Below are positions 37,045 through 49,165 of a stretch of 64,000 nucleotides of DNA, piece by piece. The position numbers were made by a program, and so were the translations under genes. Source of the stretch: a virus. The stretch is from the IMG/VR virus record IMGVR_UViG_3300045988_011313, positions 1-64,000 of that record; one strand, given 5' to 3'. Position 1 is the first letter of the stretch. Each line of letters starts with the position of its first letter. Below the pieces are notes generated by a model, which saw only the letters and a list, made by a program, of their open reading frames with translations, was not told where the DNA came from and ran no database searches.

Positions 37045-37118
37045 AGCCTCCTGAAGGATTTGAACCCTCTCTTCCTGTTTACAAGACAGGCTTGCTAAAC
37101 CATTAACACTAAGGAGGC
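37045..37118 (-). tRNA. tRNA-Thr(TGT)
   Basis: Acceptor GCCTCCT/AGGAGGC, anticodon loop CTTGTAA, T-loop TTCAAAT. Confidence 0.8.
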
Positions 37119-47906: not shown

Positions 47907-47980
47907 ACTCTCATAGCTCAGCAGCATAGAGCATTGGTTTCCTAAACCAAGGGTCGAGGGTTGGAGTCCCTCTGGGAGTA
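47907..47980 (+). tRNA. tRNA-Arg(CCT)
   Basis: ACTCTCA-TA-GCTC-AGCAGCATA-GAGC-A-TTGGT-TTCCTAA-ACCAA-GGGTC-GAGGG-TTGGAGT-CCCTC-TGGGAGT-A. The elbow pair appears swapped (C19/G56). Confidence 0.75.
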
Positions 47981-48030
47981 CTAAGGTGTTATTTGTAAAG
48001 GTAATTTGATTGTTTTTAGGTATTTATTAT

Positions 48031-48066
48031 AGGAAACTGGTATGTGATATATAGGTTTCCTTTTGT
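48031..48066 (+). terminator. rho-independent terminator-like hairpin between the two plus-strand tRNAs
   Basis: aggaaac-N17-gtttcct followed by TTTGTT. Confidence 0.5.
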
Positions 48067-48069
48067 TAT

Positions 48070-48141
48070 GTCTCCATAGTTCAAGGGATAGAACAATAGT
48101 CTTCTAAACTATATATCTGAGTTCGAGTCTCAGTGGAGATA
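48070..48141 (+). tRNA. tRNA-Arg(TCT), second copy (other strand from 41203..41274)
   Basis: GTCTCCA-TA-GTTC-AAGGGATA-GAAC-A-ATAGT-CTTCTAA-ACTAT-ATAT-CTGAG-TTCGAGT-CTCAG-TGGAGAT-A. Confidence 0.8.
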
Positions 48142-48352
48142 CAATGTCTATTTAACTACTATTTCCTGACCATGCTGTGCAAAATGACTGAAAATGTGGT
48201 GCTGATAGGTAAGCTATCACCACTTATAAATGCAACTACTTCAATGTGGGGATATAAAGAGAAAGTTACGTGACTTTAATAATGATGTTTCAATAGGAAA
48301 CAATATTTGACTTTGTTAGGACATTCTTTCAATAAGAAATGAATCCAAATAA

Positions 48353-48735
48353 GGGGCATTTTTTGGTTTTGATTGCTGATTATTTAGTAAGAGAACATGC
48401 AAAGACTGATGGAAAGACATCAAAACAATAACTGGCAATACTTCTTATAGAGTTGCTGCCTAAATAGGCTGAGTAGCACTTACTTGGAAACAGAAAGGTG
48501 CAAAGCCTGAATGAAGACTAAGGCTGAGGGTCCTACTTTAAGAGCATTAATAGGCTGTGGTCTCGCAGAAGGTAACTCAACTTTTTCCTTGTTTATGGAC
48601 AATAAAATAAGGTGGTGGAAATGCTGTAAATCCAGACAGACCCAGTGGGTAACTGACCACATTAAAAAGTAGTAAGCATGTGTAATTCTTTTATTAAAGA
48701 TTAGTAAGACAGGGGTTCGATTCCCCTATGCTCCA
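48353..48735 (+). ncRNA. ssrA: tmRNA (transfer-messenger RNA), ~383 nt, tag ORF 48434..48463 encoding GNTSYRVAA*
   Basis: 5' GGGGCAT pairs with 3' ATGCTCC (G3-U70). The 3' T-arm is AGGGG-TTCGATT-CCCCT with discriminator A. There is an internal GGC-started frame ...GTT GCT GCC TAA. AACATGC/GCATGT(G) gives P2-like pairing. Confidence 0.8.
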
Positions 48736-48769
48736 CAAAATAACTTTAGTATTAACTAAAAAAAAAAGT

Positions 48770-49165
48770 ATGTTTTATTTATTAATGTTTGAGTTCATGC
48801 TATTGGGAGTAATAGGTGGACTATTAGGTATATTCTATAGGAATTGCCTGAAGGTTGAGGATATGATATTCTATCCTTTGTATAGTAAAGTGTTTGTACC
48901 TATGGTTAAAAGTGGCAATAGGTTCTTACATTTTATAGCATTCCCATTAGGATTCTGCATCTATTGTAGTACCTTTTGGATAACTATGCTCATTCTTATA
49001 CTCTTCCTGACAAGCTGGGATTCACTCCCTAAGTGGCAGTATGTTGTAATAGGAATCATAGCAGCAGAAGGTGTAGCTCACCTAATAGTGTGTATAAGTT
49101 GCAGATTCTTAATATACAAACATCCTGACTTGGATAAGCATTACTTAAAGCATTTACATGAGTAA
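48770..49165 (+). CDS. multi-pass membrane protein (131 aa); start trimmed to Met15 of the track ORF
   Basis: The track ORF starts inside the tmRNA 3' acceptor. ATG 48770 follows an A-rich leader (MFYLLMFEFMLLGVIGG...). Confidence 0.5.
   Translation: MFYLLMFEFMLLGVIGGLLGIFYRNCLKVEDMIFYPLYSKVFVPMVKSGNRFLHFIAFPLGFCIYCSTFWITMLILILFLTSWDSLPKWQYVVIGIIAAEGVAHLIVCISCRFLIYKHPDLDKHYLKHLHE

Follow-up and report, generated by a model that had tools for sequence, protein, structure and literature searches.

The stretch of viral DNA that we have analyzed, which we call the window, is 64,000 nucleotides (nt) in length. Judged by its genes it is part of a crAss-like phage (Crassvirales). Among 63 ORFs of the window there are matches in Pfam to the Crassvirus major capsid, muzzle, tail-ring, tail-hub and cargo proteins. 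The closest records belong to the Crassvirales, Steigviridae/Asinivirinae among them, with the nearest relatives in the Asinivirinae, and the hosts listed for the closest records are Bacteroides intestinalis and B. cellulosilyticus. The window contains 26 tRNA genes, rather than the ~30 estimated in a first-pass annotation made by reading the DNA. ARAGORN finds 25 of these, and one is found by Rfam only (37045-37118, minus strand, 51.9 bits), lying between tRNA-Gly(GCC) and tRNA-Leu(UAA). ARAGORN places an array of 23-24 tRNA genes on the minus strand between 36.8 and 41.4 kb. On the plus strand a pair of tRNA-Arg genes is followed by a gene for transfer-messenger RNA (tmRNA, ssrA), which heads a block of small ORFs and replication genes.

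The window RNA is a phage-encoded one-piece tmRNA. ARAGORN calls the gene at 48353..48736 on the plus strand, with the tag GNTSYRVAA* encoded by gene positions 82-111. Rfam matches family RF00023 at 48353..48738 on the plus strand with 71.9 bits (E = 5.4e-26), where the gathering score is 47, and the alignment runs end to end, spanning model positions 1-374 of 374. The first-pass annotation had proposed a phage tmRNA with this tag and had suggested both of these searches; each is positive. In the minimum free energy fold (z = -2.7) P1, P2 and the T-arm are recovered along with several internal hairpins. The positions of the structural elements are given in Table 1.

Table 1. Elements of the phage tmRNA gene and the tRNA genes upstream of it, in window coordinates.
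Feature	Position	Strand	Description and basis
Two tRNA-Arg genes (CCU, UCU)	47907..48142	+	upstream of the tmRNA, same strand
Whole tmRNA gene	48353..48735	+	383 nt to the discriminator A; ARAGORN, Rfam RF00023, fold
Acceptor stem, 5' strand (GGGGCAT)	48353..48359	+	pairs with 48728-48734; holds G3 of G3:U70
D-loop analogue of the tRNA-like domain (TTTTTGGTTTTGA)	48360..48372	+	Rfam alignment
P2, 5' strand	48373..48400	+	P2a 48373-48381, bulged A 48382, P2b 48383-48395, P2c 48396-48400
Simple hairpin at the usual PK1 position (TGATG-GAAAGA-CATCA)	48407..48422	+	A:U to U:A compensatory change in four sequences
Tag frame (GGC AAT ACT TCT TAT AGA GTT GCT GCC TAA, GNTSYRVAA*)	48434..48463	+	ARAGORN, conservation
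Short helix-5-like hairpin (GCC-TAAATA-GGC)	48458..48469	+	UAA stop in the loop; sequence
H-type pseudoknot directly after the tag	48471..48501	+	covariation
Variable module of the ~380-nt class	48502..48586	+	~85 nt; alignment of homologs and per-class folds
Hairpin CCTTGTTT-(10 nt)-AAATAAGG	48587..48612	+	directly 5' of the conserved TGGTGGA; predicted
Two further hairpins	48624..48660	+	CTGT/ACAG 48624-48627/48636-48639; GTGG/CCAC 48645-48648/48657-48660
P2, 3' strand	48676..48707	+	GCATG 48676-48680, 5-nt bulge, TTCTTTTATTAAA 48686-48698, GATTAGTAA 48699-48707
T-arm (AGGGG-TTCGATT-CCCCT)	48711..48727	+	sequence, covariation
Acceptor stem, 3' strand (ATGCTCC) and discriminator A	48728..48735	+	sequence

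The two ends of the RNA form a tRNA-Ala-like domain, with an acceptor stem of 7 bp that includes G3:U70, a discriminator A (48735) and a T-arm. All of these had been recognized at first reading, and they can be read directly in the sequence. The domain has no anticodon arm, and the T-arm has a loop of the GGUUCGAnUCC type. The acceptor stem is invariant in the first 34 copies that we collected, and in a later relative (L234) it has become GGGGCTA/TAGCTCC, a compensatory change. Two of the five pairs of the T-arm covary (A:U/G:C/U:A and G:C/A:U/U:A) in 13-15 of 30 sequences. The D-loop analogue aligns to the Rfam consensus cuGGaUUCGAC with posterior probability *, and its GG and TTTGA are invariant among the phage tmRNA homologs. 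The 3' CCA tail is not encoded, the gene reading ...TCCA-CAA, and CCA must therefore be added enzymatically.

The tRNA-like domain is connected to the remainder of the RNA by a long P2 helix of 27 pairs, of which 100% are paired in 30 sequences. A short P2-like pairing noted earlier, ACATGC with GCATGT, is the inner end of this helix. Across the 30 sequences P2 contains one compensatory pair and seven switches between G:U and A:U or between U:G and U:A, and in P2c a C:G pair changes to U:A on both sides in five sequences. We counted pairs in the 30-sequence alignment for P2a-c, the hairpin at the PK1 position, the stop-codon hairpin, the next hairpin, the GTGG/CCAC hairpin and the T-arm. Standard pairs make up 99.5% of the 1470 pair cells, and eight pairs have changes on both sides (30 distinct sequences). 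In a control where the 3' partner was slid by one to three columns, pairing was 38-50%. The compensatory changes are located in the T-arm, P2, three hairpins and one pseudoknot. Thus P2 and one pseudoknot, the elements for which the first-pass annotation had looked to an alignment, both exhibit covariation.

Where PK1 is normally found, there is no pseudoknot but a 5-bp hairpin with one compensatory change, and the region falls 16 nt short of its counterpart in Bacteroides. By eye we found no conserved pseudoknot partner either for the loop of this hairpin or for those of the 3' hairpins. Although typical of the tmRNA family, PK1 does not strictly define it. In E. coli PK1 is important, yet a hairpin can take its place without loss of function. 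Following the tag, the three pairs of the hairpin that holds the stop codon in its loop are invariant in the 30 sequences, so that covariation speaks neither for nor against it. This is followed by the H-type pseudoknot, in which stem 1 is formed by 48471-48474 and 48482-48485, and stem 2 by 48476-48481 and 48496-48501. All ten pairs are kept in all 30 sequences (100%), and each stem has a single compensatory pair, with a change from U:A to C:G in 12 sequences and from G:C to U:A in five. Slid controls for this pseudoknot pair at 12-57%.

The remainder of the downstream region comprises hairpins, several of which covary, and their number varies with the size class of the RNA. The Rfam consensus stems of PK2-PK4 do not align in the window tmRNA (low posterior probability). 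The variable module includes a predicted hairpin formed by AGCCT (48504-48508) and AGGCT (48521-48525). The whole module is missing from homologs of ~302 nt, and homologs of 440-450 nt have other inserts instead. The hairpin preceding TGGTGGA is predicted in every size class with differing stem sequences, including CTTGCAT/ATGCAAG, CTCTATT/AATAGAG, CCCTGTT/AATAGGG and others; these changes were read by eye and left out of the count, since MAFFT misaligns this stem. In the two hairpins that follow, the CTGT/ACAG stem varies by class (GTTGA/TCAAC, GTCAAC/GTTGAC, GTTAAC/GTTAAC), and GTGG/CCAC becomes GTAG/CUAC in eight sequences and ACAG/CUGU in L011, remaining 100% paired. The hairpin at the PK1 site, the lack of alignment to the PK2-4 stems and the modular 3' domain are unusual features of this RNA.

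The tag reading frame is strongly conserved. The frame seen at first reading is open with a conserved stop in 34 of 34 unique copies, the stop being TAA except for one copy with TGA. Three differences in tag length occur among the homologs, each of exactly 3 nt, and codon changes are synonymous (AAT/AAC, GCT/GCC) or conservative. The 34 copies encode GNTSYRVAA, DNTSYRVAA, GNTSYKVAA, GNTSYRAAA, GNSYRVVA, DNTYRVAA, GNTYRAAA and GTSYKMAA, giving a consensus [G/D]NT(S)Y[R/K][V/A/M]AA. Only a translated frame would be expected to show such strict conservation of the frame, the context of the resume codon and the stop, together with indels of 3 nt. We also considered the +1 frame beginning at a canonical GCA (AILLIELLPK*), and rejected it because its length is erratic and its stop is not conserved; in five of the 34 homologs the 60 nt (20 codons) that were read contain no stop.

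The resemblance to Bacteroidota ssrA tags noted at the outset holds. On the genomes of Bacteroides, Parabacteroides, Segatella and others ARAGORN gives GE(T/N)NYALAA, so that the host tags are GETNYALAA or GENNYALAA, in the same register and with the same GGC resume codon. The phage tag lacks the acidic residue of the host tag and has a basic residue at position -4 in most copies. More distant members of the family on IMG/VR contigs (L173, L192, L212, L238 and L234) have longer tags with GCA or GCT as the resume codon (AEVDETPVRMAA, AEVDYTPVRMAA and AKSYRMTPALMAA), ending ...VRMAA or, as in L212, ...ALMAA; in L173 and L238 the PK1 region also differs. In most of the phage copies the C-termini are Y-[R/K]-[V/A/M]-A-A and V-R-M-A-A, compared with Y-A-L-A-A in the hosts. 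With a tag unlike the host degron, targeting to proteolysis is not assured, although, as in canonical degrons, the phage tag retains a terminal AA.

Searching with blastn reveals homologs in cr106_1, cr128_1 and Kehishuvirus 'tikkala'. A first pattern scan of IMG/VR gave 36 phage contigs that carry the gene and a second one added at least 22, the majority 90-104 kb in length, and overall tmRNA homologs are present in at least 60 related phage contigs from several genera. After removal of introns there are 34 unique full-length sequences, falling into classes of ~302, 316, 335, 377-388 (that of the window) and 439-450 nt. The longest class is missed by ARAGORN and called by Rfam. The two tRNA-Arg genes accompany the tmRNA at nearly all homologous loci, and in some relatives only ~8 nt separate the end of a tRNA from the start of the tmRNA. 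This close spacing suggests that the tmRNA may be co-transcribed with the upstream tRNA and released by tRNA-type processing.

The nearest known counterpart is the tmRNA of cr106_1 (Mahstovirus faecalis, MT774378 / NC_055871, 29657-29960), annotated in GenBank as 'transfer-messenger RNA, SsrA'. It is 85-91% identical to the window tmRNA over the shared parts, it also follows a tRNA-Arg on the strand of the replication genes, and its tag likewise ends in YRVAA. The two RNAs have in common the tRNA-like domain, P2, the hairpin at the PK1 site, the post-tag pseudoknot and the terminal hairpins. They differ in size, cr106_1 tmRNA having 302 nt and the window RNA 383 nt with its ~85-nt module at 48502-48586. 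The resume codon is GAC in cr106_1 and GGC in the window, and the tag GNTSYRVAA is one codon longer than the DNTYRVAA of cr106_1.

The chromosomal tmRNAs of Bacteroidota share with the window RNA the one-piece organization, a tRNA-like domain with G3:U70, a long P2, a stop codon in a hairpin loop, a GGC resume codon in register, and a nine-residue tag of the form G-x-x-x-Y-x-x-A-A. The window RNA differs in its GC content (39%, compared with 47-49% in Bacteroidota tmRNAs), in the plain hairpin and 16-nt shortening of the PK1 region, and in that the consensus stems of PK2-4 are not recognizable. Its tag contains no Glu and has the basic residue at -4, and unlike the chromosomal gene it is carried by a virus that has no smpB. 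On alignment it is 44-52% identical to Bacteroidota tmRNAs, the identity between those of Bacteroides and Flavobacterium being 61%. A blastn comparison with 120 Bacteroidota tmRNA loci returns one weak match of 75 nt. We therefore rejected a recent capture from a host. By these comparisons the window tmRNA belongs to an old, fast-evolving, AT-rich phage lineage that is homologous to Bacteroidota tmRNAs.

No gene for SmpB was seen in the window at first reading, and the searches agree. Using as query E. coli SmpB (100% identical to the annotated SmpB), tblastn finds no match in the window or the loci fetched, and SmpB is absent among the best 25 of 32 Pfam families matched by the 63 window ORFs. 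In the complete genome of cr106_1 (101.7 kb) no SmpB is annotated, and none is found by tblastn in bases 1-100000. In consequence function would require the SmpB, alanyl-tRNA synthetase (AlaRS), EF-Tu and CCA-adding enzyme of the host.

We think it likely that this is a functional one-piece tmRNA gene of a crAss-like phage of Bacteroidales, one that provides extra capacity for ribosome rescue during infection. From the established biology of trans-translation the following steps would be expected. The RNA would be transcribed with, or directly after, the two upstream tRNA-Arg genes, trimmed by the tRNA-processing enzymes of the host, and given its CCA by the host CCA-adding enzyme. Host AlaRS would charge it with alanine through recognition of G3:U70, and host SmpB and EF-Tu would carry it to ribosomes that have stalled on mRNAs that are broken or lack a stop codon. 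Translation would resume at GGC (48434), adding A-GNTSYRVAA and ending at UAA, so that the ribosome is freed and the protein fragment marked. The probable benefit to the phage would be added rescue capacity, alongside its 26 tRNAs, while mRNAs are being degraded or cleaved in the infected cell.

Preservation of the gene is not uniform across its relatives. In the nearest relative, bajarodcaudo virus 1 (PQ006092; L004 6827-7726), a hypothetical ORF of 299 aa replaces the tmRNA; the two tRNA genes are kept, as seen in the sequence by eye, and the downstream gene differs. This replacement marks the slot as a hotspot for gene exchange. In 'tikkala' (OQ198717; L002 3001-3305), which has been cultured on B. 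cellulosilyticus, the tmRNA is intact as far as GGGTTCGAGTCC and then continues as AACCATCCCCACAAAAAG. As a result the T-stem and acceptor stem are broken and G3:U70 is lost, and neither ARAGORN nor Rfam calls this copy. In L005, 3.9 kb downstream of its tmRNA, a tRNA-like element ends with the same 3' sequence and flank, and for that reason the 'tikkala' copy looks like a deletion that arose by recombination between two identical T-loops. In L023 (reverse strand, ~91 nt from offset 2125) an internal deletion leaves the tRNA-like domain only, GGGGCAT...GCAAAGACTGTTGGTAAGACGAGGGTTCAAATCCCTCATGCTCCA, a mini gene with neither tag frame nor pseudoknots. Together the broken copy and the remnant indicate that the gene is dispensable in at least some settings. 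The tmRNA gene is accessory in these phages.

Such losses, along with the 44-52% identity to Bacteroidota tmRNAs, the loss of PK1 and the divergent 3' domain, might be taken to indicate a decaying pseudogene of a host ssrA captured once in the past. We regard this as very improbable. Between 99.5 and 100% of the pairs are kept by compensatory changes, the acceptor stem with G3:U70 is invariant in the 34 copies first collected, the tag frame survives in every one of the 34, and the gene is spread over several genera. These features would not be preserved under neutral decay. Base pairs kept through compensatory changes, the conserved tag frame and stop, and indels in multiples of three indicate that the RNA is under selection and very probably functional.

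It is improbable in our view, if less so than decay, that the RNA is a decoy or competitor and not a rescuer. It would then titrate SmpB, AlaRS or EF-Tu of the host, or swap in a tag that is not a degron, with the result that host trans-translation and tag-directed proteolysis are dampened or redirected. Having no SmpB of its own, the phage tmRNA must compete with the host tmRNA for the host protein, and its tag differs at the positions adjoining the C-terminal AA (Y-R/K-V/A/M-A-A compared with Y-A-L-A-A). Moreover, a derivative reduced to the tRNA-like domain exists in L023. This is the only relative here comparable to the tmRNA of mycobacteriophage DS6A, which has no tag coding sequence and has been reported to inhibit the endogenous tmRNA in E. 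coli (PMC11915505). Against the decoy reading stand the strictly kept tag frame, resume-codon context and stop with indels of 3 nt, which are expected only on translation, and the AA terminus, which resembles that of canonical degrons. The decoy and rescue models are not mutually exclusive.

A somewhat less improbable proposal, if still an unlikely one, is that the phage tmRNA rewrites the outcome of trans-translation, such that rescued proteins take a route other than that of host-tagged proteins, or that the RNA resists a host nuclease. If this were so, phage-tagged proteins might escape the host protease or adaptor or be re-targeted; alternatively the RNA might resist a nuclease of the host that disables the host tmRNA in abortive infection. 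The L023 copy with only the tRNA-like domain would then be the extreme case, a pure inhibitor. Finally, tmRNA genes are common integration sites and fragments of ssrA occur in prophages (PMC9004378, PMC11915505), yet it is hardly credible that the window gene is a host fragment kept as attP or gained by imprecise excision, given that it has its full length, with 5' acceptor strand and discriminator both present, rather than being a 3' fragment, that it has essentially no DNA similarity by blastn to the 120 Bacteroidota tmRNA loci, and that no integrase family is among the best 25 of 32 Pfam families matched by the 63 window ORFs.

Thus we favor a functional tmRNA that would rescue ribosomes with the help of host proteins. 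In the human gut crAss-like phages rank with the most abundant viruses, and how they take over translation in Bacteroides is poorly understood. The presence of a conserved tmRNA without smpB beside a near-complete set of tRNAs suggests that rescuing stalled ribosomes is limiting in these infections. The family also provides natural variants with which to test which parts of the tmRNA and which tag residues matter in Bacteroidota, including forms that bear an intron, that comprise the tRNA-like domain only, or that have a broken 3' end.

Phage tmRNAs are already known, if rare. They have been found in 402 of 18,146 phage genomes (2.3%) (PMC9004378), and in mycobacteriophage cluster C, DS6A, Melnitz and huge phages ssrA likewise lies among phage tRNA genes. 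The tmRNA of the pelagiphage/methylophage Melnitz is in two pieces and linked to a riboswitch, whereas that of the window is in one piece. Huge phages carry tmRNA with SmpB, in some cases (PMC7162821), which the window phage lacks. RefSeq viruses were processed for the tmRNA database described in 2025, and no crAss entries are listed in its text supplements (PMC11915505). Full-text searches of the literature for tmRNA with 'crAss-like' or 'Crassvirales' returned mentions of tools only, with no discussion of a crAss-like tmRNA. The present family is therefore already annotated in GenBank and is not discussed in the literature searched. Our finding extends a known phenomenon and an existing annotation, and the hairpin at the PK1 site, the modular 3' domain and the re-tuned tag are its unexplored details.

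In several relatives the tmRNA gene is interrupted by a group I intron of ~870 nt that splits the T-loop after UU (internucleotide position 3). The carriers are L003 3431-4299 (cr128_1, MT774392), L009, L021, L025 and L032, and a second lineage is represented by L040 13474-14344; the introns of the two lineages are 74% identical. The intron matches Rfam RF00028 at 86 bits. Its P1 is GGGUU/GACCC with a U.G wobble at the splice site, its last base is G, and joining of the exons restores the exact uninterrupted sequence of L006 and L038. An antisense ORF of 186 aa within the intron matches PHROG endonucleases of the HNH/EndoVII type (E = 7e-20). These T-loop introns are mobile. The phage intron was not found in the 120 host tmRNA loci. 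Position-3 tmRNA introns have been reported from class Bacteroidia only (PMC11915505); those may be related to the phage introns, or may lie on misbinned phage contigs.

Directly upstream of the tmRNA a block of ~120 nt (48226-48345) is conserved in relatives of two size classes (L008, L017, L020, L026, L029, L033, L034 and L039). Without an ORF or a match in Rfam, the block may be a promoter, a leader or another small RNA. A scan for sigma-70 promoters and terminators near the gene gave two sites, compared with 7.7 expected, the promoters of Bacteroides and crAss phages lying outside the models of the scan.

In cr106_1 a TROVE (Ro60-like) RNA-binding protein is annotated 2.2 kb downstream of the tmRNA (L161 32221-33642), and a HicA-like mRNase is annotated also (L162 10506-10946). 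A phage mRNase would generate non-stop mRNAs that the tmRNA resolves. In the window neither TROVE nor HicA is among the best 25 of 32 Pfam families matched by the 63 ORFs of at least 90 aa.

Two ORFs, 48480..48662 (minus strand) and 48511..48672 (plus strand), lie inside the tmRNA. We treat both as spurious, because they have no Pfam match and are located within a covarying RNA. The first-pass annotation had placed the former inside the RNA, which is correct, and with it the first 14 codons of ORF 48728..49165, which is not. The latter ORF shares only 8 nt with the tmRNA, its ATG being the A-U-G of the acceptor 3' strand. Fourteen codons is the distance from 48728 to an in-frame ATG at 48770, and this is the more plausible start of the ORF.
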